The notes: generated by a model not told the origin, from the letters alone. Positions 22,553 through 45,427 are shown, numbered from the stretch's first letter. The stretch is DNA of 47,600 nt from Candidatus Brocadiia bacterium (GCA_046538485.1 JBKHIT010000036.1:1-47600), one strand, 5' to 3'. Program-made: numbers and translations.

Positions 22553-23434
22553 CTACCATTGGCGGCGTATCCAAGACAAAACTAGTAACGCGCCAAGAAA
22601 TGCGATTGACATCATAATCGTAATGAACACGACGAAAGTTTCCGCGCCTAATACAAGACGCAAAAGCAATATAAGCCCAATTAATATCAGAAGAACCGTA
22701 GAACACGCAAATGTAGCACATACGGATGCTTCATAGCTATCCTGTTCCGCTTTTGAAGCATGGGAGGGGTGCGTTTCGTGCGATGAATTATTTGTCACCT
22801 TTTCTCTGGCGGATTTCCTCGACCGTGGGTGTTTTTTGTGCGACGTACGCATCTCGATCCTCTTCCCCGTTGTGGACCAGTCAGTCACCGTGTAGGCGAC
22901 AATCAGAATGTTCTTATACAGTTCCTTTGTATACTCCTTCCTGTTGACATCGGTTTTGCGGAGTGCATTCCTAATGCTGATGAGTTTGTCAACGGCGTTT
23001 TTTGCGGTGGTGATCGTACAGTAATGTGGTTTGGGTACCTTTGGCGGTACCGCGAACGAAACGTCGTTTTCCATTTTGTGGGGAACGACCAGATCAGCAG
23101 CTAAATGGGTGAAGACGCCGAAATAAAATGCGGCCAGTGCTTTTTCCCGTGCTTTCCAATGCGTACGCGCCTTTCTCACGAGCTCAAGCAACTTTCTCTT
23201 CAACACAGCGTCGGGTTGCTCCGGCTCGTGGTGACTCTCCCACCTACGTTCTCGTTTTTCACCGGTATATACTTCTGCAGCTTCGATCGGCAGATCGCTG
23301 AGCATTTCTTGTTTTTCTGAGTAGTCCGTAAGATCTGGATATGCCGCGCCGTTCTCAAGGGATACACGGGGGAAAGAGGGATCAAGCTGGGTGTTAATTC
23401 TTCTGACAAGCTCCTGGTGGGTCTCTCTGTTCAC
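22553..23434 (-). CDS. Zn-dependent phospholipase C/P1-nuclease-like protein with two C-terminal TM helices
   Basis: N-terminal THQ, GAAYPD, SHH, AAFYFGVFTHLAAD..PH..E pattern; hydrophobic C-terminus; GTG start with AGGAG RBS. Confidence 0.65.
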   Translation of the reverse strand: MNRETHQELVRRINTQLDPSFPRVSLENGAAYPDLTDYSEKQEMLSDLPIEAAEVYTGEKRERRWESHHEPEQPDAVLKRKLLELVRKARTHWKAREKALAAFYFGVFTHLAADLVVPHKMENDVSFAVPPKVPKPHYCTITTAKNAVDKLISIRNALRKTDVNRKEYTKELYKNILIVAYTVTDWSTTGKRIEMRTSHKKHPRSRKSAREKVTNNSSHETHPSHASKAEQDSYEASVCATFACSTVLLILIGLILLLRLVLGAETFVVFITIMMSIAFLGALLVLSWIRRQW

Positions 23435-23845: not shown

Positions 23846-24841
23846 TCAGTTAGTTGCCGCCGTCAAATCCTCGCAACTGAGAAACAGAGCATAGGCTTCT
23901 TCCATTTCCTGCTCGGTACCTCCCCAATCAATACCGTTGAGTCTGCCCCTGAGCTTTTTCCCTAAATCAGGATCGAACCGTTCGACGTGCTGGACACGGC
24001 CATTGATTTTCTGCTTTGCTTTTCCCACGGATAGTCCGTTAATAACTGCATATGCAGCAGCGCCGTTTTCCAGACAGAACCAGATGTCGTCCTTTAAATC
24101 CTGCAGGAATGATTTCGTTGGACGGAGCTTATTGTTGACGACAAGTCCAGTCACAACTTGTCTCTCCCACTCTGGAGTTGCCTTAACCTTCTCAGGTGCG
24201 ACGGTGTAGCCAGTCGATTCTATTCTGTCTACGAAGGCCTGGCACATTGAACGCAGATCGAGTTGCCCTGAGACCGCTATGTCATCGACGTATCGTCCGT
24301 AATTAAGGTTTTCTTGGCCAGAACGCTGACACAGATATAGGCATTCTTCATCTGCTGGCAAAAACGCCACATTAGCGAGCAGGGGGCTGGTTGGTGCACC
24401 TTGAGGCAAACAGCTTTCGTGGGTTGTAAGACGACCCACCAACGATGCTGCGTCCTGGGTGAATCCTCTGCGGCAAAGAGTGTTCTCGACCCGAGCTAAT
24501 GATGTAGAAGGAAAAAAGGACCTTATATCCAACGCCAAAAGCCACCTTTGCCCCACGTGAGGTTGCGCATATTCTTTGATCGAACGGCCTGGTATCCCTC
24601 CAAACATATATTTCGGTGCAGGCAAAAAAGCATCTTTGAGAATATCAAGAAGTTTGTATTGCGTTTCTTTGAGCCAGGGATAAGGGGGGTGAATAATTCT
24701 CAGCTTACCGCTATCTTTTTCAAGCTCCAATCTTCCGTAAGCGTTGGGCGCTTTGTCCGCTTGTTGTCGCAGGTGCAATAGAGATGCTTCGCATCGGCTG
24801 GCTATCTCAACCGCGTCAATTTTGCGTTTTTTGTTCCTCAT
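23846..24841 (-). CDS. Retron-type reverse transcriptase
   Basis: KDSGKLRIIHPP, LDIRSFFPS, LPQGAPTSP, catalytic YVDD, retron region Y QVVTGLVVN, region X variant YAQPH; ATG 24841 preferred (ORF extends to 24871). Confidence 0.93.
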   Translation of the reverse strand: MRNKKRKIDAVEIASRCEASLLHLRQQADKAPNAYGRLELEKDSGKLRIIHPPYPWLKETQYKLLDILKDAFLPAPKYMFGGIPGRSIKEYAQPHVGQRWLLALDIRSFFPSTSLARVENTLCRRGFTQDAASLVGRLTTHESCLPQGAPTSPLLANVAFLPADEECLYLCQRSGQENLNYGRYVDDIAVSGQLDLRSMCQAFVDRIESTGYTVAPEKVKATPEWERQVVTGLVVNNKLRPTKSFLQDLKDDIWFCLENGAAAYAVINGLSVGKAKQKINGRVQHVERFDPDLGKKLRGRLNGIDWGGTEQEMEEAYALFLSCEDLTAATN

Positions 24842-25130
24842 CTTGGCGTCCGTTTTCCCAAACTTTCTCAACGATCAGCTCTGCTGCCTGTATCAGAAGT
24901 TTTTGATCGTTAGGTAACTCTTCTGGCATATCCAGGGACTTCCAGAGAATTACCTCTGGCTCCGTTTCCAGTGCTTCGGATACGGAACGCAACCTGTTCA
25001 TACTAATATCTCTATCACCCGATTCAATCAGACTAATTGTCGCCTGACTGACACCAGCCGCGTCCGCAAGTTCCACTTGCGTTAGCCCGCGTTTTTTCCG
25101 CAATCTTCTTATCGTATCGCCTATATCCAT
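24816..25130 (-). CDS. XRE/Cro-C1 HTH protein, retron-associated
   Basis: IGDTIRRLRKKRGLTQVELADAAGVSQATISLIESG; overlaps RT start. Confidence 0.92.
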   Translation of the reverse strand: MDIGDTIRRLRKKRGLTQVELADAAGVSQATISLIESGDRDISMNRLRSVSEALETEPEVILWKSLDMPEELPNDQKLLIQAAELIVEKVWENGRQDEEQKTQN

Positions 25131-25902: not shown

Positions 25903-25930
25903 TTGACATAGTAGTTTTTAATGGTAAAAT
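25903..25930 (+). promoter_or_regulatory. Sigma70 promoter of R-M operon
   Basis: TTGACA-16 bp-TAAAAT with TGn extended -10. Confidence 0.7.
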
Positions 25931-25985: not shown

Positions 25986-27809
25986 ATGAGTCTGATCGAT
26001 GATGATGCCTGCCGGGATATCCTGATGGCGCTGATGAAGTATCCGCCCTCCCGTGAGTTCAGCCGGCGGAAAGTGGCCGAAATTGCCGATGTGCCGCAAT
26101 CCACCGCGAACCGTAAACTCGAAACGCTCGCCAAACAGGGCGTTATCGATGTGCGGCCGATCGAAGGGGGGAACACCCACCTGGTGTCCATCAACGAAGA
26201 CAGCCCCCACTACGGCGAGCTGAAATCCGCCTTCGAAAAACAACGCGATAAAGAACTGGAAGACGAAAAACAGAAAGGCACCGACTCCGGGCAGACCATC
26301 ACCCTCCACGTGCTCGAATCCTACCTGTGGCAGGCCGCCGACATTCTGCGTGGCAGCATCGACTCATCCGACTATAAAAGCTACATTTTCGGGCTGCTTT
26401 TCCTCAAACGCCTGAGCGATCGGTACGAGGAGGAGGCCGAAGAGTTGATCGAGGAGGGCATTCCGGAGAAGATTGCCTTCGATGATGAGGACCTGCACAC
26501 GTTCTATCTCCCGCCGCGTGCGCGATGGGAACACGTCCAGAAACAGAACCGCGATATCGGCGCCACCATCAATAAGGCCTTCGAGGAGGTGGAGAACCGT
26601 AACGATACCATCGAGAACGGCGTCCTGACCAGCATCGATTTCAACGATAAGGAACGTCTTCCCGATCCGGTGCTGGAGGAGCTGATCGTTCATTTCAGCC
26701 AGAAAAGTTTCCGGAACGAGAATCTGGCCGATCCCGATATCTTTGGCCGGGCCTACGAATATCTCATCCGTCAGTTCGCCGACGACGCCGGGAAGAAGGG
26801 CGGGGAGTTCTACACGCCTCGGGGCGTGGTGCAGGCTCTGGTGAAGATCCTCGACCCGCAGCCGGGCATGCGCGTCTATGATCCGTGCTGCGGCTCGGGC
26901 GGGATGCTCATCTACTCGGCATCCCACATTCGCGAGGACAACGGCGGAAGCATGGAGGACATCTCACTCTACGGTCAGGAGCGGAACCTCAACACCTGGG
27001 CCATCGCCGAGATGAACATACTGCTTCACAACCTCCCGGATGCCCGTATCGCCAAGGGCGACACCATGCGGGAGCCGAAGTTCCTGGACAACGCCGGTGG
27101 CCTGATGGTCTTCGACCGGGTCATTGCCAATCCGATGTGGAATCAGAAGCGGTGGAGCAAGGAGTTTATCAAGGAGAACCAGCCGTTCAACCGTTTCCCC
27201 TACGGTCTGCCCCCCAAAAACTCCGCCGACTGGGCCTGGGTGCAGCACATGCTGGCCAGTCTCAACCAGACCGGCAAGATGGGCGTGGTGCTGGACAACG
27301 GCGTGCTGTTCCGGAGCCGTTCGGAGGGCAAGATACGTCGCAAGGCGCTGGAGGACGATCTGGTGGAGGCAGTGATCGCCCTGCCGGGCAACCTCTTCTA
27401 CAACACCTCCTCCCCGGGCTGCATCATGATCCTGAACAAGGACAAGCCGGAGGAGCGACGGGGCAGAGTCCTGTTCATCTACGCCGAGGATCAGGAGGCA
27501 CGCGAATCCGGCACGCTGCTCTACGAGGAGCTGTCGAACCAGAACCGTCTGCTGGACAGCGGCATCGAGAAAATCGTCGAGACCTATCAGGAACTGGCGG
27601 AGGAAGACCACTTCAGTCGGCTGGTCGGGCTGGAGGAGATCGAGGAGAACGACTGGAATCTGAATGTCCCGCGTTACGTCGATACAACCGAGCCGGAGGA
27701 GCCCATCGATGTAAGCGAGAAGCGCCAGGAACTGCAGGAACTGGAAGGGAAGCGAGATCAGATCAATACTGAGCTGAATACATTTCTTGAGGAGCTTGGG
27801 TACGAATGA
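25986..27809 (+). CDS. hsdM: Type I R-M methyltransferase HsdM with N-terminal winged HTH extension
   Basis: LWQAADILRG, GEFYTP, YDPCCGSGGML, motif IV NPMW, WNLNVPRY; first ~95 aa wHTH-like (FSRRKVAEIADVPQSTANRKLETLAKQGVI). Confidence 0.95.
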   Translation: MSLIDDDACRDILMALMKYPPSREFSRRKVAEIADVPQSTANRKLETLAKQGVIDVRPIEGGNTHLVSINEDSPHYGELKSAFEKQRDKELEDEKQKGTDSGQTITLHVLESYLWQAADILRGSIDSSDYKSYIFGLLFLKRLSDRYEEEAEELIEEGIPEKIAFDDEDLHTFYLPPRARWEHVQKQNRDIGATINKAFEEVENRNDTIENGVLTSIDFNDKERLPDPVLEELIVHFSQKSFRNENLADPDIFGRAYEYLIRQFADDAGKKGGEFYTPRGVVQALVKILDPQPGMRVYDPCCGSGGMLIYSASHIREDNGGSMEDISLYGQERNLNTWAIAEMNILLHNLPDARIAKGDTMREPKFLDNAGGLMVFDRVIANPMWNQKRWSKEFIKENQPFNRFPYGLPPKNSADWAWVQHMLASLNQTGKMGVVLDNGVLFRSRSEGKIRRKALEDDLVEAVIALPGNLFYNTSSPGCIMILNKDKPEERRGRVLFIYAEDQEARESGTLLYEELSNQNRLLDSGIEKIVETYQELAEEDHFSRLVGLEEIEENDWNLNVPRYVDTTEPEEPIDVSEKRQELQELEGKRDQINTELNTFLEELGYE

Positions 27810-29134
27810 GTGATGATGGTTACAAAGAAGTGCACGTAGGACCGCAGAGACTGCAAATTCCCATCGAATGGGAAGTAAAGCTTATCAAAGATTGTTGCCG
27901 TTACGTTTCTGGGTCAGGATTTCCAGAAGAATATCAAGGCAAAAAAAGGGGGGATTATCCATTTTATAAAGTGAGTGATATGAACAATTACACCAAGTTC
28001 ATGGGTGATTCTAACAATTACGTTGGAGAGGTGGAGGTTGAAAAATTAAATCTCAAAACGGCACCTAAGGACGCCGTAATTTTTCCCAAACTTGGAGCGG
28101 CTTTGGAAACTAACAAGAGACGCATACTCTCAAGAGAGTCAATTTTTGATAATAATATTGCTGCCCTTATCGCGACAGACATAAATAATAGGTTCCTGTA
28201 TTATGTCCTGCAGACAATAGATTTGGGCATATTGGGGAATTCCGGAACAGTTCCGTCAATCAACAAATCCACGATTGAAAAATTGCAATTACTCTGCCCA
28301 CCATTGCCCGAACAGAAGAAAATCGCCGCCATCCTTTCCCGTGTGGACGAGGCGATCCGGACCACCGAGGAGATCATCGACAGGACGGAGGAGCTGAAAA
28401 AAGGCCTGATGCAGGACTTGCTCACCCGCGGGATCGGACATGATGAGTTCAAGGAAGTGCAGATTGGGCCGAAGAGGTTGTCGGCACCTGCGTGCTGGGA
28501 GAAAGTAAAGGCGGGAGATCTATGTAAAGTTAAAGGCGGTAAAAGACTGCCAAAAGGTGAGGGATATGCTGAAGAGAAAACGGAATTCCCGTATTTGCGT
28601 GTAGTAGATTTCAGTAATGGTTCTATCGATCCTTCCGAACTGCAGTATCTCAAACCGGACACTCAGCAGAAAATAGCTAGGTATACCATAACTTGTAAGG
28701 ACGTGTTCATATCGATTGCGGGCACGATAGGGGTAGTCGGAATTGTTCCTGATTTCCTGGATAACGCCAACCTAACGGAGAATGCCGCCAAGTTGTACGA
28801 TCTTCAAGTAGACCAGAAGTATCTGTATTATTATCTCAGCGGCAAACTGGGACAGGATGAAATAGACCGGTTCACGATCGGTAGTACCCAGCCTAAGCTG
28901 GCTCTCAAAAGAATAAAGAAGATTAATGTGCTAGTCCCGCCCAAAAAAGAACAGAAACAAATCGCATCCATCCTGTCCCGAGTGGATGAAAAGCTCCAGA
29001 CCGAACGGGAATATCGGGAGGAGCTCACCGAACTGAAGAGGGGCCTGATGCAGGACCTGCTGACCGGCAAGGTGCGCGTGACGGATTTGCCGGATGACTT
29101 ATTTGAAGGGATGGATTGTGCCGAATTGGCCTGA
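27806..29134 (+). CDS. hsdS: Type I R-M specificity subunit
   Basis: Two TRDs; PPLPEQKKIAAIL..LKKGLMQDLL repeated as PPKKEQKQIASIL..LKRGLMQDLLTG; ATGA overlap with hsdM. Confidence 0.95.
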   Translation: MSDDGYKEVHVGPQRLQIPIEWEVKLIKDCCRYVSGSGFPEEYQGKKRGDYPFYKVSDMNNYTKFMGDSNNYVGEVEVEKLNLKTAPKDAVIFPKLGAALETNKRRILSRESIFDNNIAALIATDINNRFLYYVLQTIDLGILGNSGTVPSINKSTIEKLQLLCPPLPEQKKIAAILSRVDEAIRTTEEIIDRTEELKKGLMQDLLTRGIGHDEFKEVQIGPKRLSAPACWEKVKAGDLCKVKGGKRLPKGEGYAEEKTEFPYLRVVDFSNGSIDPSELQYLKPDTQQKIARYTITCKDVFISIAGTIGVVGIVPDFLDNANLTENAAKLYDLQVDQKYLYYYLSGKLGQDEIDRFTIGSTQPKLALKRIKKINVLVPPKKEQKQIASILSRVDEKLQTEREYREELTELKRGLMQDLLTGKVRVTDLPDDLFEGMDCAELA

Positions 29135-29303: not shown

Positions 29304-32300
29304 ATGGCATTATCTGATGCAGCAAAGGAGCACGCTGAAGAGTTAGGACGGCAATTAGCCAAGGATAAACTATGCATCATTGCTGGTGCCGGTGTATCCC
29401 GGAACCCGCCCGCAGAGCTGCCCAACTGGCTTAATTTAGTCAAAAGAGTGAATGAGAATCTTGATGCGGGATTAGAAGAAGATACCCTCGCCAAACCGAT
29501 GATGGCCATGGGGATCATGGAAGTCCGCAAGGATCGTGGGAGCGTGGTCTCTGCTATGAGGGAAGTGCTCCCCGACAACACTCCGACCACTCATATTCAC
29601 CGGCGCCTTGTATCGCTTGGTTGCCCGATCTATACAACAAATGTCGACCAACTCTTTGAGAAGGCTGCGGAAGATCAGGATATCCCGATACGAGTCCTCA
29701 AATGCGACCAGGATTTTGCGCATGATGTGCAAGGACAAATCATCTGTAAGCTTCATGGGGATCTGCAGGCTCCGGATACACTTGTCCTGTCGCAAGGTGA
29801 CTACCATGAGGTCATGAAGCAAGAGAAAGCACGGGGATTATTCACTAAATTTCGTGCCCAATTGCAGGATTCGTATGTGCTTATGGTGGGGCATAGTGCC
29901 AATGATCCCGATTTGCAATGGACAGTAGATTACGTCAAGGAACTGCTTGGTAGAGAGGCGCGTCCAATCCGTGTCATCACAGCCACGCCTCGCCAGGATG
30001 ATATAACACGCCTTAAGGGTGTTCTTGGCCTGACCCCTGTGGTGCTTGATAATTACGATCAGCTGCCGGAATTACTCAGGACTTTGGAAGACTCGGCTCG
30101 GGAGCAAGGGAGCGCTTCTTCCCCACCAGAGTCTATTACCCTCCTAGAGGAGAATACCGTTGACATTGTGGAAGATATTTGGGCTGAGAAATCAGAGGAG
30201 ATAAACGAACTGCTCCGTCGTTGTGACTATGAACAGGCTTTAAGCCGTGCTGAAACCTGGGAGCAGCGAATCATGGACATTGATGGGGTCTCCTCCAATA
30301 CGGTTGCCAGAATATATCGCATTAAAGCAATTTGCCACCGCCAACAAGGCGACGAGGACGCAGCGCTTGTGGAAATTAATGCAGCCCTGGAAGAAGCCCC
30401 CGACAATCCCCAGAACCAGGTGGAACTTGCAACCATCAGGCTTATGTCAGGTGGACAGGAAGAAGCTTCCCACGCCCTAAAAAATGAGCAAGATTTGGAT
30501 ACTCGGCGATTCCAAGCCATGCTGGGGCTTATGTCGGATGATCTGGAGCCTACAGCAGAGCTGTTAGAGGACCCCGAAGCTCAAGAAGACGCGAACTGCC
30601 AAAGCCTCTTCGCGACTTATTATTACCGTACGGCCCGTTTTCCTGAAGCGGTTCAGGCGGCGCGTAAAGTGGCAGAGTTTGGAGATACAGTGCACGCCCA
30701 CGAACGTGCGGGAGATATAATTTATACCGTTGCAGTAAGGGGTGTGCAGGAAATGATAAACGAGAATCTACTCCTGAAACCTGATCAGTTTGAAGTGCCG
30801 ATGGGAGGAGTAGTGGACTGTCAACTGCTCGAAGAGGCTACTGAATTCTACAAGACAGCCCGTGATATGGCAGCGGAATCAGCGCGATGGGTTCGAACTG
30901 TCTTATCCAAAAAGATAGCTAGATCGGCTTGGATGGTTGGCGACAGGGAATCAGCCGACCAGAGTATTTCGCGGATACCTGAACTTGATGATTTGGAGGG
31001 CTTTTTCGAAAGAGGGAGTAGCCTTACAGAAACAGATGTCGAGGAACTGGTCGAGCAACTGAAAGAAGGGCCGCATCGCCGACGGGAGGATCCGGTATCA
31101 GCATTGATCAACGTAGCCGAGCAACTGCTGGAGCACAATAAGTCAACACTGGCGCTGCGGCTGCTGGATAAGGCTAAACAGATGGTTCCTGACGGAATTA
31201 TGCTCTTTTGGCGGAATCTGCGAGCTCGAGCATTGCTGCAGGATAGAGGTCTCCGGTCAGCAATGCGAGAGTTGAATCGGGCTAGATCCACACCCCAAGG
31301 CGAAGCTGCTGTCCACCAGTTCAAAGCGCAGTTGCAGGCACAAGCTGGAAAGCCAGAATCAGCAAAAAAATGGTTCGCACGTGCACTGAAGTCCGGGAGA
31401 TTCCGCGTATCAGCGCTCTACAGGTATGGGATGTTCGCATTGTCAGAACTGCAAGATTACGAAAAGGCAGCTGACCTTTTAGGGGAACTCATCCAATTGG
31501 TTCCAAGCCAGAAAATACAGGAGGTCTACTGCGAAGCCGCAATTGCTACAAACAAAGGGGACCTTATTCGACGGGCCAGAGCGGAATTGGAGGGATTGCG
31601 GGCCAAAGGGCAAGCGGACAAACAGGCTCTACGAGGGCTGATTGCATGTTACCAGAAAGAAACAGATTGGAAGAGAGCCCGAGAAATCGCCGAAGAGTAT
31701 CTGAAACGGTGGCCAGAAGATAAACCCATTCGGAACAACTACGCACTGTTCCTTGACAGATGCGGCGAAATAGATCTGGCATTAATGCAACTGGAAAAGC
31801 TTCGGACTTTATCTGATTTGGAGCCTGATGAGCGGTTCGGGATGCTTGTCAATAGAGCACAAATCCTTCTGAATGCGGAACGCTACCGAAAGGGTTACCG
31901 CACGGCTCTTGAGGCAAAGCAAGACTTCGAAAGCCGGGCCGAGGGTTGGCTGATGCTTATGCGCGCTTGCCGTATGCTGGGGAGGGATGACGAGCTGGCT
32001 TCAGTCATGGTAAATTTCCACAGTCGTTTCCCTGACCATCCAGCAGTCTGTGCTGAAACGGATGTGAAAAAGCTCGTTCATCTGCAGGAGACTCTTAGCA
32101 AACGAAGTCAAAAATGCAGGGAGAAATACGAGTCCCGGGAAATTCCTATACACCTGTTGGCAGAATGTTGGGGAATGCCATTGCCGGTTATCTGGGCCTA
32201 TTTAGCAAAGAACGAGGCCGTGCTTTGTGGCCTCCATGATGAGGAGACTATAGAGGCTCAAATGCAACGGATTGACGGGGGGACGCTGATTCTTGATTAC

Positions 32301-35300
32301 ACTGCCTTGCTTGCCATCAGAGAGTTGGATCTATGGGATCACCTATCCAAACTTCCAAATGTGATTGTGTCTCAAGCCCTCCTTGATCAGCTGCAAGAGG
32401 ATTCGCATGATCTCCAGGGGCGTCTGCGGATAGAACACCGGGAACGTTACGAGCATATGCAAGAAACACTTGAAGGGAGTGGCAGCGTCTCCATTCATGA
32501 CCAGAATCCCCGTCAGGATATACCCGATCCATGGATTGAGGAGCATGGCTGGATCACGGCGGCTGACCTATGGCACGCAGAACAGGCAGAAGGAGTGGTG
32601 CTTGATGACATATCTGATACGCTCCCGCCCAGCAGGATTCTCAGAACAGACCAGTTGCTCCAGTGTTTACACAGGGAAGGCTGGTTGTCCCGTTCTGATT
32701 TGGACGACGCAATAGAAGAAATCAATCAGTGGCCCAGCCATATACAAGGGGGTACGGAAGCTCCACTCGTTGTGAAGGACACCCAGATGACGACTCCCAT
32801 CGTGCTGTCAATAAACGCGATCGAATCACTTGAGAGGTTGGACATGCTGGAGCTGGTCGCATCCCGCTGCAGTCAAGCTATTGTTTCCTCAGCAACCTGG
32901 AGTCATTTTGCGTCTGAACTTGCGCAACTGCGCTTTTTCAAACGTACAAAAGAAAACCAAGACCATCTTCGCAATCGGGCCACAAGCATAGACGTCACGG
33001 CGGTAGAAAAGCGCGAAGTGCAGGCCGCTGGCCTGAAAGCCGATGCAGATTCGGCATACCTACAACACAACTGGTGTCTTGCGAGAAAAGATCAGAGTCT
33101 CCTTTGGACGGACGACGCAGTGCTCCGGGCATATACCGAAAAGAGGCCGGTTGTAGAAGACGGCATGGCCGTGACTACTATAGCCGTGTTGCATTGGTTA
33201 AAAGAGAATGGCCATCTGGATGAAGAGGATTTTCGAAGGCGAATTCAAACTCTGACTAGACTCCAATATCAGTACGTCGTTCCGGAGGCAGATGACTTGC
33301 TTTGGACAATGCGGGAGTACAATTGGCAAATTACTGAAGAAGCTGCGGAAACCTTACGTTACTATGGAGGACTTTTTGAACACGTCAAGCCCAATGTGAG
33401 GAATCTGAATTGTTTTTTCCAATCTATCGAGGAACTGTTGTGCGAATGTTGGCAGTTATCTGGACGTTCACAGACAGAAAAGGCGGACCTCGCAAACTGG
33501 ATATTAGAGAATATCATGCATCCACGATGGTACGAAGAGAGGCCGGAAAAGGTTAGGCGCGTCTTCCTCGACCGCATGCTTCTTGTGTTATGGAGGATGC
33601 CTGTCGCGGGAGCTCGACGTTTTGGAATATGGTTGCGGGATTACTTTATGCAAGAGGGAATGCCAGCAAAGGAATTTGCTGAAGCATTAGGGGATTTGCT
33701 GAGGGAGATATCGCAGACAGAAACAGAAAAAGAGGAAAAAGAAAAAGCAATAGTCAACATCCTCGTTCGCTTGCCTGTGTGTCTTAGACGAATGATTCCT
33801 GAAAAAATCTTTTTCAGAATATCGCATTTATTGGAACAGAGTGAAGGTACACTTCAAGTGCTTGAAGCTAAAACTGCTCAGGGCACGTTCTCTTTGGCTC
33901 AAAACGATGTGAAGATGCTCGCAGAGGATCAGGTTGAGCGTCATGGAGCTGAAGCTATAAATGAGAATCTAAGAGTTGAAATATCAGCCGACGTCACCCG
34001 GTATGCATTCTGTGAAGAAGAGGACGGTGTCTTGCGATGGCCCTCATATCCTTCCGGCCTGCGACAGGAGTTTTACGTCGATGCGACTGAACTATTGACC
34101 AGTTGGTCGCAAGGTGTTCGAAAGAGCACGGCTGCAGGTATCGCCAGTCGAATTAATGATTCTTCTGTAAGTTTTGTTGCGCTAAATAGCAGTCTGCATA
34201 ACACGAACGAGTGGAATGATGAACAAATTCGCGATCTCCGGACAATTGCTCATTCCCCAGCAGTCCGTCTTCTATTCCACGGTGGGGAGTCCAACGAACA
34301 GTGGATCAGGGAGCTTCTCGGAACATCATGGGAAACCATACAAAATGCCTATGGATACCTACCGAACGCGCCTCAAGATGTTTTCCTTAGCGGAAATGAC
34401 TGGCCTGAATGTATTCGTTCTGCATTTCCGACTCGTGGCGCTTTTGCGAACACAATACGGGAAGTGAGTCATGCTGGCGGCGACAGTTGTTTGGACGATC
34501 TACTTGGACAGCTAACCCACACGCACGATCCTTTTACATTTGCAGCGAGTCTGGAGGCGATCTTCGAACGGGTAGATGTGGGATCAGGCGTGGAACCCGA
34601 TCAGAAAGACACCATTTCCAATCAAATCCATCACGGACTGACTGTATTTGGGGATTCGGGCGACCGGCATGCCAGGCACACTGCATTCGTAGAGATACTG
34701 CGCGCTGTGGCGTGGATTTCGATCCAAAAAGGTTACATCTATCGAAGCAATAACTCGCAACGGCTCACAAACGCGGAACTACTGGTGCCGGTTATACCGT
34801 TGGCCCGGGATATTGCTGAGATCGTCGATCTTTCGTCTGCAACTCAAAAAGAATGCCAGGGCATCAAGAAGTCCTTTGTCAGGATTGTGGATATCGCGGC
34901 TCAGAACAGCATGCGTAACGGTGTTGTTGCAGTAACCAACGATGTTGCAGATTTCCGTTGTATAACTCCCAGAGAGTTGCTCCCGGCGATAACCATGAGC
35001 GTCTTGGAGCAATCCCCAAAGACCAGCAAGAAATTTGTGGATTACCATCAAATCAAAGAAGAGGTCGTTACCCTATTGTTACCCCCTGTCTCTGTGCTAT
35101 CGCTCCCGCGACGGACTCAGAATAGGCTCGACATGTATCCATCAGCATCCCTACCGGAATGCGCTCAGAGACTTCTGACCGAATTCTTGCGCAAAAGCAA
35201 GCTAAAAGAAGCAATCGGGGATTGGGAACGACCTACTTGGCGAAAAATTCCACCTACCGTTCGCGTTATGGAAGCGGACGTTCAAGACGTCACATTTGGG

Positions 35301-35753
35301 CTGCTCCAGCATAAGGTCCCTTTCATACCGGCAAGCATAGCCAATCAGCTATATACCGATGCAAAGGATCCACAAGAACTGTGGCACCGTGCTGAGAATG
35401 AGATGCCAAATGCTCTCTCATTTTTCTGGTCTTGTGTAACGCTGTTGGATGAAGACAACCGCCGTGAGCTGTGTGAAGGTACCTGTGCAGCTGCTGAAAT
35501 GTCGCTGGATGCCCAAAACTTGGAACGGGCCATTTGGGGCATAAATCTGATAATCAGACATCTTCAAGACTTGAGCGAGGCCGAGTGGAGCACTTTATCA
35601 TTGCTTCTCTTTCGTACCCTCGAAGATGAGGCTGTTGATGAAGACATCCGACGAAGCATTGCGCGATCTATGAGCAACCTACCGGAGAATATTGGACGGC
35701 TTAACCGAGAAATCGCAGCAGATTTTGCCTCGGATATTTTTCCTGGGTTATAA
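29304..35753 (+). CDS. SIR2-like NADase domain + TPR repeats + PIN-like domain(s), 2149 aa
   Basis: IIAGAGVS..LPNW, TTNVD, KLHGD, VGHSANDPD; TPR-like helices aa ~300-900; LILDYTALL and LLWTDD PIN-like motifs. Confidence 0.85.
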   Translation: MALSDAAKEHAEELGRQLAKDKLCIIAGAGVSRNPPAELPNWLNLVKRVNENLDAGLEEDTLAKPMMAMGIMEVRKDRGSVVSAMREVLPDNTPTTHIHRRLVSLGCPIYTTNVDQLFEKAAEDQDIPIRVLKCDQDFAHDVQGQIICKLHGDLQAPDTLVLSQGDYHEVMKQEKARGLFTKFRAQLQDSYVLMVGHSANDPDLQWTVDYVKELLGREARPIRVITATPRQDDITRLKGVLGLTPVVLDNYDQLPELLRTLEDSAREQGSASSPPESITLLEENTVDIVEDIWAEKSEEINELLRRCDYEQALSRAETWEQRIMDIDGVSSNTVARIYRIKAICHRQQGDEDAALVEINAALEEAPDNPQNQVELATIRLMSGGQEEASHALKNEQDLDTRRFQAMLGLMSDDLEPTAELLEDPEAQEDANCQSLFATYYYRTARFPEAVQAARKVAEFGDTVHAHERAGDIIYTVAVRGVQEMINENLLLKPDQFEVPMGGVVDCQLLEEATEFYKTARDMAAESARWVRTVLSKKIARSAWMVGDRESADQSISRIPELDDLEGFFERGSSLTETDVEELVEQLKEGPHRRREDPVSALINVAEQLLEHNKSTLALRLLDKAKQMVPDGIMLFWRNLRARALLQDRGLRSAMRELNRARSTPQGEAAVHQFKAQLQAQAGKPESAKKWFARALKSGRFRVSALYRYGMFALSELQDYEKAADLLGELIQLVPSQKIQEVYCEAAIATNKGDLIRRARAELEGLRAKGQADKQALRGLIACYQKETDWKRAREIAEEYLKRWPEDKPIRNNYALFLDRCGEIDLALMQLEKLRTLSDLEPDERFGMLVNRAQILLNAERYRKGYRTALEAKQDFESRAEGWLMLMRACRMLGRDDELASVMVNFHSRFPDHPAVCAETDVKKLVHLQETLSKRSQKCREKYESREIPIHLLAECWGMPLPVIWAYLAKNEAVLCGLHDEETIEAQMQRIDGGTLILDYTALLAIRELDLWDHLSKLPNVIVSQALLDQLQEDSHDLQGRLRIEHRERYEHMQETLEGSGSVSIHDQNPRQDIPDPWIEEHGWITAADLWHAEQAEGVVLDDISDTLPPSRILRTDQLLQCLHREGWLSRSDLDDAIEEINQWPSHIQGGTEAPLVVKDTQMTTPIVLSINAIESLERLDMLELVASRCSQAIVSSATWSHFASELAQLRFFKRTKENQDHLRNRATSIDVTAVEKREVQAAGLKADADSAYLQHNWCLARKDQSLLWTDDAVLRAYTEKRPVVEDGMAVTTIAVLHWLKENGHLDEEDFRRRIQTLTRLQYQYVVPEADDLLWTMREYNWQITEEAAETLRYYGGLFEHVKPNVRNLNCFFQSIEELLCECWQLSGRSQTEKADLANWILENIMHPRWYEERPEKVRRVFLDRMLLVLWRMPVAGARRFGIWLRDYFMQEGMPAKEFAEALGDLLREISQTETEKEEKEKAIVNILVRLPVCLRRMIPEKIFFRISHLLEQSEGTLQVLEAKTAQGTFSLAQNDVKMLAEDQVERHGAEAINENLRVEISADVTRYAFCEEEDGVLRWPSYPSGLRQEFYVDATELLTSWSQGVRKSTAAGIASRINDSSVSFVALNSSLHNTNEWNDEQIRDLRTIAHSPAVRLLFHGGESNEQWIRELLGTSWETIQNAYGYLPNAPQDVFLSGNDWPECIRSAFPTRGAFANTIREVSHAGGDSCLDDLLGQLTHTHDPFTFAASLEAIFERVDVGSGVEPDQKDTISNQIHHGLTVFGDSGDRHARHTAFVEILRAVAWISIQKGYIYRSNNSQRLTNAELLVPVIPLARDIAEIVDLSSATQKECQGIKKSFVRIVDIAAQNSMRNGVVAVTNDVADFRCITPRELLPAITMSVLEQSPKTSKKFVDYHQIKEEVVTLLLPPVSVLSLPRRTQNRLDMYPSASLPECAQRLLTEFLRKSKLKEAIGDWERPTWRKIPPTVRVMEADVQDVTFGLLQHKVPFIPASIANQLYTDAKDPQELWHRAENEMPNALSFFWSCVTLLDEDNRRELCEGTCAAAEMSLDAQNLERAIWGINLIIRHLQDLSEAEWSTLSLLLFRTLEDEAVDEDIRRSIARSMSNLPENIGRLNREIAADFASDIFPGL

Positions 35754-36149: not shown

Positions 36150-39100
36150 ATGGTTCATCCGCATAACAGCACCGAATACACCCATTCCGAACGCCCCGCG
36201 CTGGATACGCTGGGCGCCCTCGGGTACGAGGTCCATGACTGCACCGGCACAGGGGATAAACCAGCCCCGGATAATCGCTCCGATGAAACCTCGGTGATAC
36301 TGCAGGATCGTCTTCGCGCGGCCATCCGGCGGCTCAACCCCTGGATCAACGACAACAACCTGAACCGCTCCGTCAACCAGCTCCGGCGACTCCAGGCCGT
36401 CGACACCATGCACGCCAACCGGGATATCCACCGGCTGCTGGTGAGCCATACGTCATTCCGCCAGGATCTGGGGCACGGGAAGAAAAAACAGACCGTCCGT
36501 TACGTCGATTACGAGCACCCGGAAAACAACGATTTCCTCACCCTCAATCAGTTCCGGGTGGCCGGCCCCAACGAAGTGATCAAGCCCGATATCGTGCTGT
36601 TCGTGAACGGTCTGCCGCTCGGCGTGATCGAGTGCAAAAGTCCAACCATCACCCAGCCCGATTCCAAAGCGCTCGATCAAATCACGCGATATCAGAACAC
36701 CCGCGGCGGCGATGACGAAGGCGCGGAACAGCTCTTTCGCTACAACCAGTTCACCGCCGCCATCTGGGAAGTCGGCGGCATTTACGGCACCTACGGCACG
36801 CCCCGAGATCAATACAAAGCCTGGAAGGATCTCTATCCGGTCACGGACAAGTATATCCAGAAAACGCTGGGCAAGAGCAAACTCGCCGAGCAGGATCGCG
36901 TGCTGTATGCGCTTTTCGAGCCGCGGCGACTGCTCGATCTGCTGCAGCACTACACGGTGTTTGCCGACGACGGGCAGAACCTCAGCAAACTGGTGGCGCG
37001 GTATCAGCAGTATCGCGCGGTGCAAAAAGCGCTCAAACGCATCGAGGAATGGGAAAACGAAGAGGCCGAAACGAACGGCGGGGTGGTGTGGCACACGCAG
37101 GGCTCGGGAAAATCGCTGACTATGCTGTTCTTGGCGCTCAAATTGCGGCGGCTCAAAGAGAATCCGACCCTTCTGCTGGTGACCGACCGGACGGTGCTCG
37201 ATAACCAGATCCACGCGACTTTCCAGGACTGTGGCTATCCCAATCCCAAACAGGCCCGGGGCGTAGCGGACCTGAAGAAAAAGCTTCGCGGGCCGGCCGG
37301 GCAGACCATCACCACACTCATTCAGAAGTTCCAGGAGAATGAGAAAGAGAAATTCCCGGTTCTGTCACGCTCCCGGGACATTTTTGTGATGGTGGACGAG
37401 GCGCATCGAACGCAATACAAAGACCTCGCCAACAACATGCGGACCGGTCTGCCGAACGCTTTCTACATCGGTTTCACGGGCACGCCGATAGAAAAAGACA
37501 AACGCAACACGCGTCGCACATTCGGCAATTACATCGATCAGTATACGATCGACCAGTCGATCGAGGACGGGGCGACGAAACGCATCTTCTACCAGGGCCG
37601 GCTGGCGGATATTCATCTGGATGGCGTGGATTTGGACGATGTTTTCGACCGCGTTTTCTCCGACAAAACGGACGAGGAAAAACGTGAGATCCGAAAACGG
37701 TATGCCCGCGAGCAAGATCTGGCGGAAGCCCCCAAACGCATCGAGACCGTGACGCTGGATCTGATCGAACATTTTGAGAGCCGCGTGGCCGAACCCTTCA
37801 AGGGATTGGTGGTTACCAGCAGCCGGGATGCCGCCGTTGCCTACAAACAGGCCCTCGACAGATTCAACGGGCCCGAATCGGCCGTGGTAATTTCCGGGGA
37901 CAATAACGATCGACAGGAACTGAAGCGGCATACGCCATCGGATGCGCAGAAACGGACGCTGAAGAAAAGGTTCAAAGATCCGGCGGACCCGCTGAAATTG
38001 CTGGTGGTCTGCGATATGCTTCTGACGGGGTTCGACGCGCCGATTGCCCAGGTGATGTATCTCGATCGGCCTCTGAAAGGCCACAACCTGCTGCAGGCGA
38101 TCGCGCGGGTGAACCGGCCGTATGAGGAAAAGACGTGCGGACTGATCGTGGATTACTACGGCGTCTCGGAGGACCTGCAGGCCGCGCTGGCGCAGTTCAG
38201 CAGTCAGGATGTGGAATCGGCAATGCAGCCGCTGGAGGAGGAGATGCCGCACCTGGAGGCCGCCCACCAGCGGGCCATTTCGTTTTTCGCGGATACGTCT
38301 CTTGACGATCTGGAAGGGTGCGTGGAACGGCTGGAGGAGGAAGAGAAACGGATCCATTTCAACGGGGCGTTCAAGGCCTTTTCGCGTGCCATGGATATCG
38401 TCCTGCCGGATCCCATGGCGAATCCCTATAAAGGCGATCTGCGGAAGTTGGGGGATATTTACACGGCGGCGCGGAACCGATACCGCGACGAAACGATGGA
38501 CCTGCGGGGCTGCGGGCAGAAAGTGAAACAGATCATCAAAGATCACATATCCTCCACGGGGATCCAGGTCCTCAACCAGGAGCCGGTATCGATCCTTGAT
38601 CGGGGCGAGTGGGAAGAACACATAGGACAGCTCGATACCGACGAAGCGAAAGCCAGTGAAATGGCGAACGCCGTCAAACACGAGATACGCGTCCGGTACG
38701 GCGAGGATCCGGTCTATTACGAATCACTCCAGAAGAAAGTGGAAGAACTGATCGCTCGGTACAAACAAAAAAGTCTTTCGGCGAAGCAGTTCCTGCGTCG
38801 GATGGGTGAGGCGATTGAAGATATTCGCCAGAGGGACCAGCGTGCGCAGGAGAAAGGACTCGACAACCGAAAAGAGCTGGCCTTTTACAACGCAATTGAG
38901 AATGCGTTCGAAACCAGCGACGCGGCGGAAGTCGGCCCCGACGGACACAACATCAAAGAAAACGGGCGTGGATATGTGGCGTGCGATGTGGCGGGAATGA
39001 CCAAAGATGTGACGTCGCTGATCAATAAGGAGACGGTTGTGGACTGGAAGCGGAAGGTGAAGGTGCAGAAACAGATGCGGCGGACGTTGAAGATTTATCT

Positions 39101-39185
39101 GTTCAAGAACCTGGGGGCTTTGGGCAGAGAGAAGATCGACGAGTTGGTGAACAGTTTCATTGAACTGGCGCGGGAGCATTTCTGA
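36150..39185 (+). CDS. hsdR: Type I restriction endonuclease subunit R
   Basis: PDIVLFVNGLPLGVIECK, HTQGSGKS, DEAHR, GFTGTP, MLLTGFD, QAIARVNR. Confidence 0.97.
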   Translation: MVHPHNSTEYTHSERPALDTLGALGYEVHDCTGTGDKPAPDNRSDETSVILQDRLRAAIRRLNPWINDNNLNRSVNQLRRLQAVDTMHANRDIHRLLVSHTSFRQDLGHGKKKQTVRYVDYEHPENNDFLTLNQFRVAGPNEVIKPDIVLFVNGLPLGVIECKSPTITQPDSKALDQITRYQNTRGGDDEGAEQLFRYNQFTAAIWEVGGIYGTYGTPRDQYKAWKDLYPVTDKYIQKTLGKSKLAEQDRVLYALFEPRRLLDLLQHYTVFADDGQNLSKLVARYQQYRAVQKALKRIEEWENEEAETNGGVVWHTQGSGKSLTMLFLALKLRRLKENPTLLLVTDRTVLDNQIHATFQDCGYPNPKQARGVADLKKKLRGPAGQTITTLIQKFQENEKEKFPVLSRSRDIFVMVDEAHRTQYKDLANNMRTGLPNAFYIGFTGTPIEKDKRNTRRTFGNYIDQYTIDQSIEDGATKRIFYQGRLADIHLDGVDLDDVFDRVFSDKTDEEKREIRKRYAREQDLAEAPKRIETVTLDLIEHFESRVAEPFKGLVVTSSRDAAVAYKQALDRFNGPESAVVISGDNNDRQELKRHTPSDAQKRTLKKRFKDPADPLKLLVVCDMLLTGFDAPIAQVMYLDRPLKGHNLLQAIARVNRPYEEKTCGLIVDYYGVSEDLQAALAQFSSQDVESAMQPLEEEMPHLEAAHQRAISFFADTSLDDLEGCVERLEEEEKRIHFNGAFKAFSRAMDIVLPDPMANPYKGDLRKLGDIYTAARNRYRDETMDLRGCGQKVKQIIKDHISSTGIQVLNQEPVSILDRGEWEEHIGQLDTDEAKASEMANAVKHEIRVRYGEDPVYYESLQKKVEELIARYKQKSLSAKQFLRRMGEAIEDIRQRDQRAQEKGLDNRKELAFYNAIENAFETSDAAEVGPDGHNIKENGRGYVACDVAGMTKDVTSLINKETVVDWKRKVKVQKQMRRTLKIYLFKNLGALGREKIDELVNSFIELAREHF

Positions 39186-39922
39186 TGCGACGGTTGAACA
39201 TCGGTCAGATAAGTCTGCCGTATGAGATTCGCTGGAGTCCCGATCGCAAATCGATCGGGCTGAGTCTGTCCAACTCCAGCGAACTGACGGTGAACGCGCC
39301 GAGTTCGGCGGCACTTGATGAGATCGAGGCGACGCTTGAGAGGAAAAAACCGTGGTTGCTACGCAAATTGAGGGCGGTGGACAGCCAGGAAGAAGCGCCG
39401 GGACCGAAGGAATACCTCAGCGGCGAGAAACTCCTCTACAACGGGCGGCAACATCGGATCGAGGCGCTGGAGAAGCCAGGGCTGGACGAACCGGAGGTGG
39501 AATTTGCGGACGGCAGGTTCCGGATCGAGGCACCGTCGTATGAGAGGGATGCGGATCGGGTGGAGGCGGTCCGGGGCGCTTTAAAGGAATGGTATTGGTG
39601 TGTTGCTGAGGAGAACTTGCCCGAGCGCGCCTGCAAATACGCCCGCAAGCTCGGATTGGGGTCGGTGGAAGTGCTGATTTACGATTCCGACACCAAGTGG
39701 GGCGAGAGCAAAGGCGATAGCATTCGTTTGAACTGGCGTTTGATGTTGGCGCCGACGCGGATCCAGGACTACATAATCGTCCACGAACTCTCCCACCTGA
39801 AACACCCCGAGACCCCCACTCACCATTCAAAGCCCTTCTGGCACACGGTCGGATCGCTGCTGCCCGATTATGAAGAGCGGAAGGAGTGGTTGCGGCTGGA
39901 GGGGAGCATCCTCAGCTTGTAG
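39185..39922 (+). CDS. M48/YgjP (SprT-like) metallopeptidase associated with type I R-M
   Basis: KEYLSGE, IRLNWRL, YIIVHELSHL, HSKPFW; TGATG overlap with hsdR. Confidence 0.92.
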   Translation: MRRLNIGQISLPYEIRWSPDRKSIGLSLSNSSELTVNAPSSAALDEIEATLERKKPWLLRKLRAVDSQEEAPGPKEYLSGEKLLYNGRQHRIEALEKPGLDEPEVEFADGRFRIEAPSYERDADRVEAVRGALKEWYWCVAEENLPERACKYARKLGLGSVEVLIYDSDTKWGESKGDSIRLNWRLMLAPTRIQDYIIVHELSHLKHPETPTHHSKPFWHTVGSLLPDYEERKEWLRLEGSILSL

Positions 39923-39985
39923 GAACTGCCCTTCTCCCCGGTCCGACGGCAAGTCTTGGAGATGTTTCGAGCACGGAGAGTCGAT

Positions 39986-41308
39986 ATGCCGAAAAGAACA
40001 AATAGATTTCAGAAGCTGGTTAAGCAAATAAACGAAGCTTTAGTGGGACAAGACGCGGAGGTTGAAGAATCCGCTATGGAGCCCGTGTTGGGCGACGACG
40101 ATTTTAGAGAGATTGATGTCCTCATAAGGAATGAACTGGGACCGTATCGGGTTAAAATTGCCGTTGAAGCAAAGAACGAAAGTAGGCCGCTGGCAGTGGG
40201 GAAAATCGACTCAATCGTGGGGAAGTATAGGGGACCCCGCCGCGTTGAAGTAAACGACGTTTATGTTGTTTCCAGTCGGGGCTTTACGTCCGGGGCAGAA
40301 AAAGCGGCTGCCGCAGCAGGCATTAAGCTGCTAACTCTTAGCGAAGCTGAGACATATGATTGGGGGAAACTCTCGCTGAAAAACCTGATGGACAATGGAC
40401 AATGGACAATACCCATTGAGGAATTCCACATAGAACCGGAGCCAGGTGTGGAAATAACTGAAGGGGTTTTGGATGAGGCGAGAATACGTTGCTCTTGCGA
40501 TGAGTGCAAGAATGCAGAGTCTGAAGATAAGGGAACCTTAAGACAAGTTGCGCAACGATTGTTCATGCGTAAATTCTATTCTGACAGGAACCTCCAAGAG
40601 GAATTCATGGAGATGTACGAGCCGGAAAAAGACGGATTATTTTTCACGTTAAATCAGGGCTGGCAATCTGCAGTTTTGAATTATGAGGGAGATGAATTCC
40701 CTGTACAGAAGGTGCGAATCAAGATCGGCAGGCTAACTCCGCATGAAATCCCGCCTTCTCCATTTTCCGGCGCGCGATTTCGTTTCAGAAAAAGAATGCG
40801 TATTACAAGAGTGCAGATAAAACCGGACATTCAAAACGATAATTTTGATCTGGAAAAAGCTCATCTGGTTTGTACGTGTAAAAAGGGTCAAAAAGATCTT
40901 GGGAGTATCGCCGACTATATCGTGGAGGTGATCAACGAACATATCCCGGAGAAGAATCCAGAAATTATCCGTCGCACGTTCGAAGAGATGCGAGAGACAG
41001 ACGGGCCAGTTGTCGTTCAGGTTCATGTGCCCTTGAATCATCACTACGTAGAATTCGAAGGTGAGCGGTATCCCATCACCGAATTGGTCATTTTTGTCCA
41101 AGGAGAAGAGTCCGAAGGGTCACTGCGTTTTGAAAGTTTCCAGATGCGAGGTGACCAATTATCACTGCCTAATGTAGTAGTAGGAGAAGCGAAAGCGGGC
41201 GGAAAGCGGTTTAGAATAGTTATGCCGCAGTCGCTTGAGTCTCCGCGGATTTCCGTTGACATGACAGAACTGGAGAATGGCGAGGAAACAGATGCTTCGG
41301 GTCAATAA
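39986..41308 (+). CDS. Mrr-like PD-(D/E)xK endonuclease with tandem C-terminal repeat
   Basis: REIDVLI...IAVEAKN, VVSSRGFTSGA; GGAG RBS before ATG 39986. Confidence 0.8.
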   Translation: MPKRTNRFQKLVKQINEALVGQDAEVEESAMEPVLGDDDFREIDVLIRNELGPYRVKIAVEAKNESRPLAVGKIDSIVGKYRGPRRVEVNDVYVVSSRGFTSGAEKAAAAAGIKLLTLSEAETYDWGKLSLKNLMDNGQWTIPIEEFHIEPEPGVEITEGVLDEARIRCSCDECKNAESEDKGTLRQVAQRLFMRKFYSDRNLQEEFMEMYEPEKDGLFFTLNQGWQSAVLNYEGDEFPVQKVRIKIGRLTPHEIPPSPFSGARFRFRKRMRITRVQIKPDIQNDNFDLEKAHLVCTCKKGQKDLGSIADYIVEVINEHIPEKNPEIIRRTFEEMRETDGPVVVQVHVPLNHHYVEFEGERYPITELVIFVQGEESEGSLRFESFQMRGDQLSLPNVVVGEAKAGGKRFRIVMPQSLESPRISVDMTELENGEETDASGQ

Positions 41309-41629
41309 TTGGTCACGTAAAATGGCTTTGGATATTTGAATTGGCGTTGAAAGGTTACTCCGAAAGGGGCCCGACCCGCTGCGAGGAAATGTCACCGCAA
41401 AAGTACACGACAAATAGGACTCCGCATACGCGCATTAGAGGAGATTCCCGCGGGGCTTCTAACGCCGTGGAACTTGTTGCGGCGGTGGAATGAAGCTTTT
41501 CACGGCAACTTCAAAAGGGGAGGCTCAGACGTTTTTTCTAGAGCCGTGCCGCATACAGCATTTCAGAGAAGTTGTGGCTGAGCTTGACTGCTTTTTGTAA
41601 GTAACATTAATAGGAAGGAATTTTAATAC

Positions 41630-43739: not shown

Positions 43740-43827
43740 TACCGACGAGAGACGGGCACTGCGGTCTGGACAGTTGCATTATCGCAGTCTGCAAAACTTG
43801 ACGCCCGAGAAAGAGGGAAGGTTAAAG

Positions 43828-45250: not shown

Positions 45251-45427
45251 AAAGGAAAAACATTGCCGTCATGTACGGACAGAGTTGACACGAATGCACC
45301 GGTTGACTGCTTTTGTTTGACGGTCGATCGGGAAAGGAATGAACCTCTTTTTGTGACCGATGGTATGTATGCCAAGGGGGCTCCATCGTCCCGTATGCTG
45401 CTATGGACGCCATGAGCGGAGATTGCA

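Follow-up and report, generated by a model that had tools for sequence, protein, structure and literature searches.

What kind of gene lies between hsdS and hsdR in a Type I restriction-modification (R-M) operon of Candidatus Brocadiia bacterium, and does it serve that operon or only reside in it? The DNA examined here (GCA_046538485.1 JBKHIT010000036.1:1-47600), referred to as the window, is 47,600 nucleotides long, and the interval in question is filled by one open reading frame (ORF) encoding a protein of 2149 residues (P0001, the giant protein). Our findings indicate that this giant gene is probably a stand-alone, single-polypeptide abortive-infection NADase/nuclease of the TPR-GreA/B-C-PIN (TGP) lineage, carried as acquired cargo within the Type I R-M operon. 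The gene and its parts, all on the + strand, are the following:

29304..35753, + strand: giant gene, 2149 residues plus stop codon (ORF list and translation)
29325..30002, + strand: SIR2 (SIR2_2 / ThsA / DSR2-type) NADase-like domain, residues 8-233 (PF13289, PADLOC ThsA, ThsA alignment)
30201..32003, + strand: TPR / helical repeat array, residues ~300-900, roughly 600 residues (several TPR Pfam families)
32016..32273, + strand: helical module resembling a helix-turn-helix (HTH) upstream of the PINs, residues 905-990 (PF24407 in the homolog P0002, hhalign, all-helical model)
32274..32783, + strand: PIN-like unit 1, residues 991-1160, with polar residues D998, Q1029, D1033, D1088 and D1102 conserved (hhalign, conservation, structure search)
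32784..33308, + strand: PIN-like unit 2, residues 1161-1335, with S1169 at the D998 position and D1270, D1271 and T1292 invariant (hhalign, conservation)
33309..33803, + strand: post-PIN helical region, residues 1336-1500 (whole-TGP profile to residue 1396; pLDDT ~65-80)
33804..35750, + strand: family-specific C-terminal extension, residues 1501-2149, mostly helical (no Pfam match, matched only by close relatives)

An intact ORF conserved from end to end

The protein is encoded by a single ORF, and a second protein of 2161 residues (P0002) aligns to it end to end with 35% identity and 32 gap columns. Since the alignment covers the full length, the giant gene is real far beyond chance, and the collinearity of the two proteins points to selection acting on the architecture as a whole. 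The start codon is confirmed by the N-terminus MALS, which both proteins have in common. Identity between them is highest, at 41-45%, in SIR2, TPR-B and HTH, and lowest in the C-terminal extension (28-33%) and at residues 471-600 (22%).

An earlier, sequence-only reading of this DNA had quoted a series of motifs along the protein, and all of them were located at the residues it gave: GAGVS at residue 28, TTNVD at 111, LHGD at 150, FPDH at 909, IPIHLLA at 947, LILDYTALL at 995, IVLSINAIE at 1166 and LLWTDD at 1266. It had also reported no NTPase Walker A motif, and a motif scan of the full protein likewise finds none.

SIR2 head and TPR array

The SIR2 and TPR domains had both been called from the motifs, and profile searches agree with the two calls. 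SIR2_2 (PF13289) matches residues 109-230 with 71.3 bits against a cut-off of 24.5, and the best PADLOC models are ThsA (E 7e-24), LmuA, Dsr2 and Dsr1, each restricted to the SIR2 part. The nearest solved chains are those of the defence NADases ThsA (6lhx, 8bto), KomC and DSR2. In the printed alignment, the TTN (113) and KLHGD (151) of the giant protein stand opposite TTN and KMHGD of ThsA 6lhx; 8bto, whose printed ThsA sequence is otherwise identical, has an Ala opposite N113. We take N113 and H151 to be the catalytic Asn and His positions, with which the PDB names 'DSR2 H171A' and 'KomC(H146N)' agree. With a score above the family cut-off and both catalytic-position residues kept, the domain is a predicted NADase of the SIR2_2 defence type. 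Downstream of it, residues 305-900 are matched by TPR_14 (E 6e-13, 5 stretches), TPR_19, TPR_16 and ANAPC3.

HTH-like segment and tandem PIN-like units

The sequence-only reading had seen a PIN domain and a second PIN-like unit after the TPR array. Domain parsing of an AlphaFold model of residues 900-1400, built on a 10-sequence alignment (pLDDT 86.1, pTM 0.79), shows two PIN-like units preceded by an all-helical segment (residues 900-993). When this model was compared with 48,161 chains by VIA-align, PIN-domain entries took the first 32 rows, some of them being classed as PIN proteins by their titles. The best PIN match was 1o4w (Z 9.9, root-mean-square deviation 2.6, 111 residues aligned), and several VapC toxins and SMG6/EST1A (2dok, Z 8.4) were also matched. 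In hhalign, unit 1 (residues 991-1150) and unit 2 (residues 1160-1335) pair with a probability of 98.2% (E 2e-13, 155 columns), and the two units are therefore considered an internal duplication. The pairings are D998-S1169, D1088-N1256, D1102-D1270 and T1115-T1292. In the alignment of ten sequences, D1088, D1270, D1271 and T1292 do not vary and Q1029 and D1033 hardly do; D998 is kept in every sequence that includes its region. An HTH directly upstream of two tandem PIN domains, which is the PF24407 / double-PIN architecture, is thus found in the giant protein, and P0002 scores above the PF24407 cut-off (29.6 versus 27 bits).

Several observations weigh against this assignment and, with it, against the overall reading. 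In the giant protein itself both Pfam families stay below threshold: PF24407 (HTH_upst_double_PIN) reaches 14.8 bits against a cut-off of 27 at residues 924-965 (E 0.038), and PF20698 (PIN-TPR-GreABC) reaches 18.2 bits against 27.8 at residues 996-1037 (E 0.003). Because of these sub-threshold scores, the family placement draws on transitive and profile-profile evidence. A PF20698 search of the window's own genome returned nothing at E<=0.01, and Foldseek found no match for the 900-1400 model in the PDB at E<=0.001. The VIA-align PIN matches have Z values of 8-10, modestly over the background quoted for the tool, and their ranges (92 to about 400) cover both units. The PIN fold of residues 900-1400 is supported by the model, a support which does not extend to active-site geometry. 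Profile searches against the PDB gave only OAS1 at E 0.02 with one alignment (A4) and only TPR proteins with another (A3).

The residues of the two units also bear on the possibility that SIR2 is the sole effector, the duplicated PIN module being catalytically dead or regulatory and serving to bind nucleic acid or protein, as sensor or scaffold. This would be in line with Ser1169 of unit 2, which occupies the place of the first Asp present in unit 1 and in TGP PINs (a further point against the preferred reading), with Q1029 at a nearly invariant helix position, where the second acidic residue is not placed with certainty, and, as an analogy only, with the composite SMG5-SMG6 PIN described in eukaryotes (PMC12923823). 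However, unit 1 retains D998, D1033, D1088 and D1102, and D1270, D1271 and T1292 of unit 2 are invariant across distant relatives, as fits catalysis. In this regard, the TGP protein Agp, reported to protect E. coli together with Bab against T5 by abortive infection, lost defence upon mutation of its PIN active site, though its protein level was also lowered (bioRxiv 10.1101/2024.11.07.622273). We therefore regard a SIR2-only effector as unlikely, and an active nuclease module remains the preferred reading.

Relation to TPR-GreA/B-C-PIN proteins

As described by Kaur et al. (2021, eLife, PMC8195603), the constant core of TGP proteins is made up of TPR, GreA/B-C and a new PIN, and is preceded by an N-terminal EAD10 that is swapped elsewhere for one of 13 effectors, SIR2 included; the effector kinds reported are EAD10, TIR, PNPase, SIR2, nucleases and peptidases. 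The systems are mostly standalone genes, and the authors propose that the protein binds RNA polymerase through GreA/B-C and cleaves the transcript with its PIN, the N-terminal effector being a suicide back-up (PMC8195603). The system is absent from the 2020 eLife paper PMC7159879.

TGP controls were drawn from the same phylum, where PF20698 occurs in 4 of 401 genomes, the window's own genome not being among them. The four ORFs encode 1309, 1253, 1476 and 1253 residues; three contain the Pfam domain GreA_GreB (E 1.6e-4 to 1e-3), and the fourth (L030) is SIR2-headed (SIR2_2, E 5e-24). Against the four TGP PINs, hhalign matches PIN-like unit 1 with a probability of 96.1% (E 3e-9, 150 columns) and unit 2 with 98.2% (E 3.6e-14, 151 columns), and residues 905-990 match the TGP pre-PIN region with 96.6% (E 6e-10, 85 columns). 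The whole TGP alignment is collinear with that of the giant protein and P0002 (98.1%, E 8.6e-14, 1044 columns), spanning residues 139-1396 of the former. The TGP tail gives a weak match to residues 1289-1439 (40%, E 2.9e-4, 138 columns). A BLASTP comparison with the SIR2-headed control aligns the SIR2 part only (27% over 232 residues).

A GreA/B-C profile built from the three TGP proteins matches the alignment of the giant protein and P0002 with a probability of 0.04%, and as a positive control the same profile finds the domain in L030 at residues 975-1031 (92.6%). PF01272 (GreA_GreB) has no match at E<=10 in residues 280-930, 900-1360, 1341-2149 or 1500-1619 of the giant protein. Among five distant double-PIN relatives, with a 558-residue piece (P0011) left out, the GreA/B-C profile matches one (P0014, 84%). 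Two claims of the sequence-only reading are borne out here. The PIN of the TPR-GreAB-C-PIN kind is recovered through Pfam matches in relatives and profile matches to bona fide TGP proteins, and the absence of GreAB-C agrees with a profile search that is negative alongside its positive control.

Of the features of the class, the giant protein has the TPR array, a PF20698-type PIN and an N-terminal effector, and does not have GreA/B-C. Judged by these profile comparisons, it is a derived TGP branch in which GreA/B-C has been lost, the PIN has been duplicated and residues ~1440-2149 have been added. It is less novel than the sequence-only reading had implied, since TGP forms with a SIR2 head are known from the in-silico work of Kaur et al. 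(2021; PMC8195603), where SIR2 is listed among the effectors. Among the papers searched, none describes a double-PIN or enlarged form.

Two side observations concern the proteins used in this comparison. In P0014 (1234 residues) the GreA/B-C-like segment lies at residues 771-845, and this protein may, from its sequence, be an intermediate between canonical TGP and the double-PIN forms without GreA/B-C. On contig L030 (4998-9428 and 10328-11908), Pfam misses the GreA/B-C domain that the custom profile finds, and the TGP gene adjoins that of a large serine recombinase, suggestive of a mobile element.

C-terminal region

The sequence-only reading had described a helical C-terminus of no recognised kind. 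It is indeed helical and is poorly modelled, with a pLDDT of 57.4 and a pTM of 0.31 that improve only at residues 1360-1500 and in the last ~170 residues. Residues 1336-1500 are possibly equivalent to the ~160-180-residue tail of TGP proteins, and roughly residues 1440-2149 (~700 residues) are an addition of this family. The extension has no Pfam family at E<=10 beyond noise and no PADLOC family, and is matched only by P0002 and by fragments P0003, P0004 and P0007-9. Its last ~170 residues resemble a HEAT/ARM solenoid by VIA-align at Z 9-11, which is below the ~13 advised for helical folds and stands for generic helical repeats; residues 1515-1600 form a small alpha/beta region of low confidence in the model, a caveat to the absence of GreA/B-C, though this stretch has no match to that domain either. 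In DSR2, the helical C-terminus binds phage tail tube protein, and by this analogy we infer a sensor or scaffold role for the extension, its 650 poorly modelled residues being one more point against the overall reading. As a separate observation, DUF7825 was suggested for the giant protein by the protein Atlas (0.91, 144 shared features, low recognition) and was set aside, having no Pfam support.

Homologs and rarity

An exhaustive phmmer search with residues 950-2149 over 1,835,955,588 representative proteins (E<=0.001) returned 14 proteins: the query itself, seven close-relative fragments or short pieces (P0003-P0009) and six distant proteins (P0010-P0015). One other full-length homolog (P0002), plus fragments, represents the family among 1.84 billion representative proteins. 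The six distant proteins match only within residues 995-1359; they are TPR proteins with PF20698, two of them also with PF24407, and P0010 and P0014 pass the PF20698 cut-off. An index search with residues 1-950 returned the query alone and missed P0002, and is thus not exhaustive. A profile search of genome contigs gave only two SIR2-only matches (L003, L004). The giant gene is present in one of the 61 related genomes searched, the window's own, and in none of the 60 others. Near-identical pieces occur on contigs of three additional runs of the same study, none of these contigs skipping the giant gene, and the same search of runs listed no RNA holder for it.

Three of the close-homolog fragments (P0003, P0005 and P0006; 38-55% identity) show apparent out-of-frame tails at their ends, and the genes behind them may be frameshifted or mis-assembled. 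P0003 is encoded on an 87,972-bp contig.

Genomic context

Placement in the slot between hsdS and hsdR, as first read from the sequence, agrees with the Pfam and PADLOC annotation of the neighbouring genes, given here with their GC content at third codon positions (GC3) where it was computed:

25986..27809, + strand: hsdM, Type I methyltransferase (N6_Mtase E 1.6e-103, HsdM_N; PADLOC MTase_I E 1.4e-142; GC3 0.785)
27806..29134, + strand: hsdS, specificity subunit (Methylase_S E 1.6e-49, two stretches)
36150..39185, + strand: hsdR, Type I restriction subunit (SWI2_SNF2 E 4e-83, HSDR_N E 2.5e-38; PADLOC REase_I E 1.5e-158; GC3 0.732)
39185..39922, + strand: YgjP-like metallopeptidase, its start overlapping the hsdR stop (PF01863 E 1.2e-43; GC3 0.748)

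The order on this strand is hsdM-hsdS-giant gene-hsdR-YgjP. The GC3 of the giant gene is 0.494 as against 0.73-0.79 for hsdM, hsdR and the YgjP-like gene, and we therefore consider that it was acquired separately from hsdM and hsdR. No flanking direct or inverted repeats marking its insertion were found, the window contains no tRNA or Rfam family, and the totals of promoter and terminator scans are at or below chance. Homologs of hsdR occur at E<=1e-100 in 17 of 132 genomes of the class, the window's own included, the best being 45-46% identical and located at contig ends.

The neighbourhood survey places the giant gene within a Type I R-M operon, with a retron-type reverse transcriptase, an Mrr-like gene and a DUF3800 gene in the vicinity, and its homolog beside Tiamat. 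P0002 is encoded on a 12,006-bp contig (L002) with a full-length Tiamat TmtA (641-3979, PADLOC E 3e-159) and a 265-residue ORF upstream, and no hsd gene is present on that contig. With one locus embedded among hsd genes and the other adjacent to Tiamat, the association with defence recurs and the association with hsd does not. This argument from context is informed by two loci only, which also counts against the overall reading. In this regard, Type I R-M loci are reported often to hold independent embedded defence genes (PMC11411939; 10.1101/2024.01.29.577857), and thousands of embedded genes in such loci have been presented as 'guilt-by-embedding' candidates (10.1101/2024.01.29.577857).

The operon position raises the possibility of a PrrC-like guard, in which the giant protein would dock on HsdM/S/R and fire its NADase and nuclease when a phage anti-restriction protein disables the complex. 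The gene has the orientation of hsdS and hsdR, which flank it, and no + strand terminator-like site occurs from the promoter-like site of hsdM (25903-25930) to 40242, in a scan whose totals are at chance level. A guard housed in a Type I locus has its precedent in PrrC (PMC12707154), which is reported almost only from within Type I R-M systems (10.1101/2024.01.29.577857). Against this stand the locus of P0002, flanked by TmtA and the 265-residue ORF with no hsd gene on its contig, the separate acquisition shown by GC3, the embedded TgvAB, which is reported to protect on its own (PMC11411939), and the lack of a PrrC-like ABC ATPase or Walker A motif in the giant protein. Guarding of the R-M complex, which the sequence-only reading had put forward as a possibility, is hence not favoured by the P0002 locus, by the composition of the gene or by the mostly standalone nature of TGP genes (PMC8195603), and we hold it to be quite improbable. 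A particular form of it, in which the ~700-residue C-terminus would replace GreA/B-C, monitor the Hsd complex or the anti-restriction protein and release a SIR2 and PIN suicide output, seems to us slightly more doubtful still. If this form were true, the giant protein would be the first SIR2/PIN-based R-M guard.

The same data bear on a role outside immunity, such as a housekeeping or regulatory NAD-dependent enzyme, an RNA-processing scaffold or a selfish addiction module stabilising the island. TPR and helical-repeat proteins serve many roles, and the SIR2 superfamily includes deacylases. However, the best SIR2 matches are defence NADases and not sirtuin deacetylases, both known loci are defence contexts, the composition of the gene is foreign to its neighbours, and its extreme rarity, with 14 matches among the representative proteins and none in the 60 related genomes besides its own, speaks to the same effect. 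Such a role is, in our view, the most remote of the explanations considered, and independent defence cargo remains the preferred one.

Other features of the window are recorded here as observations. HsdM has ~100 extra N-terminal residues (25986-26300) with sub-threshold HTH matches (HTH_20, TrmB), and the site just upstream of hsdM at 25903-25930 is a strong sigma-70-like one (11/12, with TG). Window positions 829-21632 are ordinary chromosome (five sulfatase genes, IleRS, peptidases; GC 0.545), and the defence island begins at ~22 kb. At 23846-25130 (- strand) lies a retron-type reverse transcriptase of 341 residues (PADLOC RT_III-A E 1.6e-57, RT_VI E 9e-48), overlapped by the gene of a 104-residue HTH protein whose best PADLOC match is HTH_VI, the retron type VI partner (E 1e-17). 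Just downstream of the reverse transcriptase gene, at 22553-23434 (- strand), a 293-residue protein matches Zn_dep_PLPC (phospholipase C-like) and DUF2207_C, with no PADLOC match; it is a possible membrane-acting retron effector. After hsdR-YgjP, positions 39956-42517 encode a 450-residue protein with a marginal Mrr_cat match (22.3 bits versus 21) and a DUF3800 protein, both with no PADLOC match; the GC3 of the Mrr-like gene is 0.472 and that of the DUF3800 gene is also low, like the giant gene. Four ORFs at 42807-46762 (310, 270, 255 and 444 residues) have no Pfam match, one of them giving a weak PADLOC match to mad2 (E 1.7e-4), and they may extend the defence island.

Proposed mechanism and significance

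Taken together, these findings allow us to propose a model in which the enzyme domains would be held in check by the helical repeats, whether those of the TPR array, of the C-terminal extension or of both, until these repeats bind a cue in the form of a phage-made protein or nucleic acid. Upon release, the HTH-PIN module would cleave nucleic acid, most likely RNA, and the SIR2 domain would hydrolyse NAD+, so that infection would be halted at the price of growth arrest or cell death. Since GreA/B-C is absent, the giant protein probably does not dock on RNA polymerase in the way put forward for canonical TGP proteins; its added C-terminus may offer another surface for sensing. The sequence-only reading had proposed a single-gene NADase/RNase abortive system; its domain anatomy stands, and its mechanism is plausible, being drawn from homology and context.

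The class is already known, mostly in silico, and the giant protein is an enlarged and very rare relative of it. TGP proteins have so far been characterised almost only by comparative genomics, with Agp as one tested member. From the giant protein it is seen that GreA/B-C, the domain supposed to act as sensor in this class, can be dropped, the nuclease doubled and a large new helical region acquired, with a SIR2 head still in place. If the protein is active, RNA-polymerase docking would not be essential to the TGP chassis, a natural single chain would be at hand for asking how NADase and nuclease effectors are coordinated, and the genes known to reside within Type I R-M operons would include a giant cargo type. 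The general importance of the protein is limited by its extreme rarity.

Comparison with known systems

Like DSR2, the giant protein is one large polypeptide with an NADase-type SIR2 domain at its N-terminus and a long stretch of helical repeats behind it; DSR2 differs in having no PIN or HTH. The sequence match is restricted to the SIR2 part, the PADLOC Dsr2 profile of 1222 positions aligning at residues 9-219 and the NCBIfam model NF041819 at residues 10-219 only, with 27.7 bits against a cut-off of 1400. The giant protein has no full-length match to the Dsr2 model. By sequence, its SIR2 domain is closest to ThsA (PADLOC E 7e-24; 6lhx, 8bto), with the Asn and His positions conserved. In ThsA a SLOG domain makes up the C-terminal part, and a ThsB partner is required. 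The match to the giant protein spans profile positions 7-230 of 478, leaving the C-terminal part unmatched. Only the SIR2 half of a Thoeris protein is thus present, with no SLOG Pfam match in the giant protein, and no search for a ThsB/TIR partner was made.

Like PrrC/EcoprrI and TgvAB, the giant gene is embedded in a Type I R-M locus, in its case between hsdS and hsdR. PrrC combines an ABC ATPase with an anticodon nuclease, neither of which is present in the giant protein, and PrrC is not among the eight PADLOC families listed for it, so that it is not of the PrrC type. PrrC is reported almost only from within Type I R-M systems, and for the giant gene hsd linkage is not conserved at the other full-length locus, that of P0002.

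The TPR-HTH-double-PIN proteins (PF24407 and PF20698; P0010, P0012-P0015) have TPR, HTH and two tandem PIN-like units as in the giant protein, matching its residues 995-1359 at E 2e-7 to 6e-4 with an identity of only 21-25%, and four of the five tested have, like it, no GreA/B-C. Unlike it, they are 755-1414 residues long, end shortly after the second PIN and show no SIR2 or other Pfam domain in their N-terminal part. TGP proteins differ from the giant protein in length (1253-1476 residues in the four controls versus 2149), in having no counterpart of its ~700 C-terminal residues and in combining a single PIN with GreA/B-C, where the giant protein has a duplicated PIN and no detectable GreA/B-C; in addition, Agp of the E. 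coli Bab/Agp system works with a partner, and the giant protein has no Bab-like one. They have in common with it the variable N-terminal effector (here SIR2), the TPR array, the HTH-like segment and the PF20698-type PIN, encoded in both cases by a single large gene found in defence contexts.

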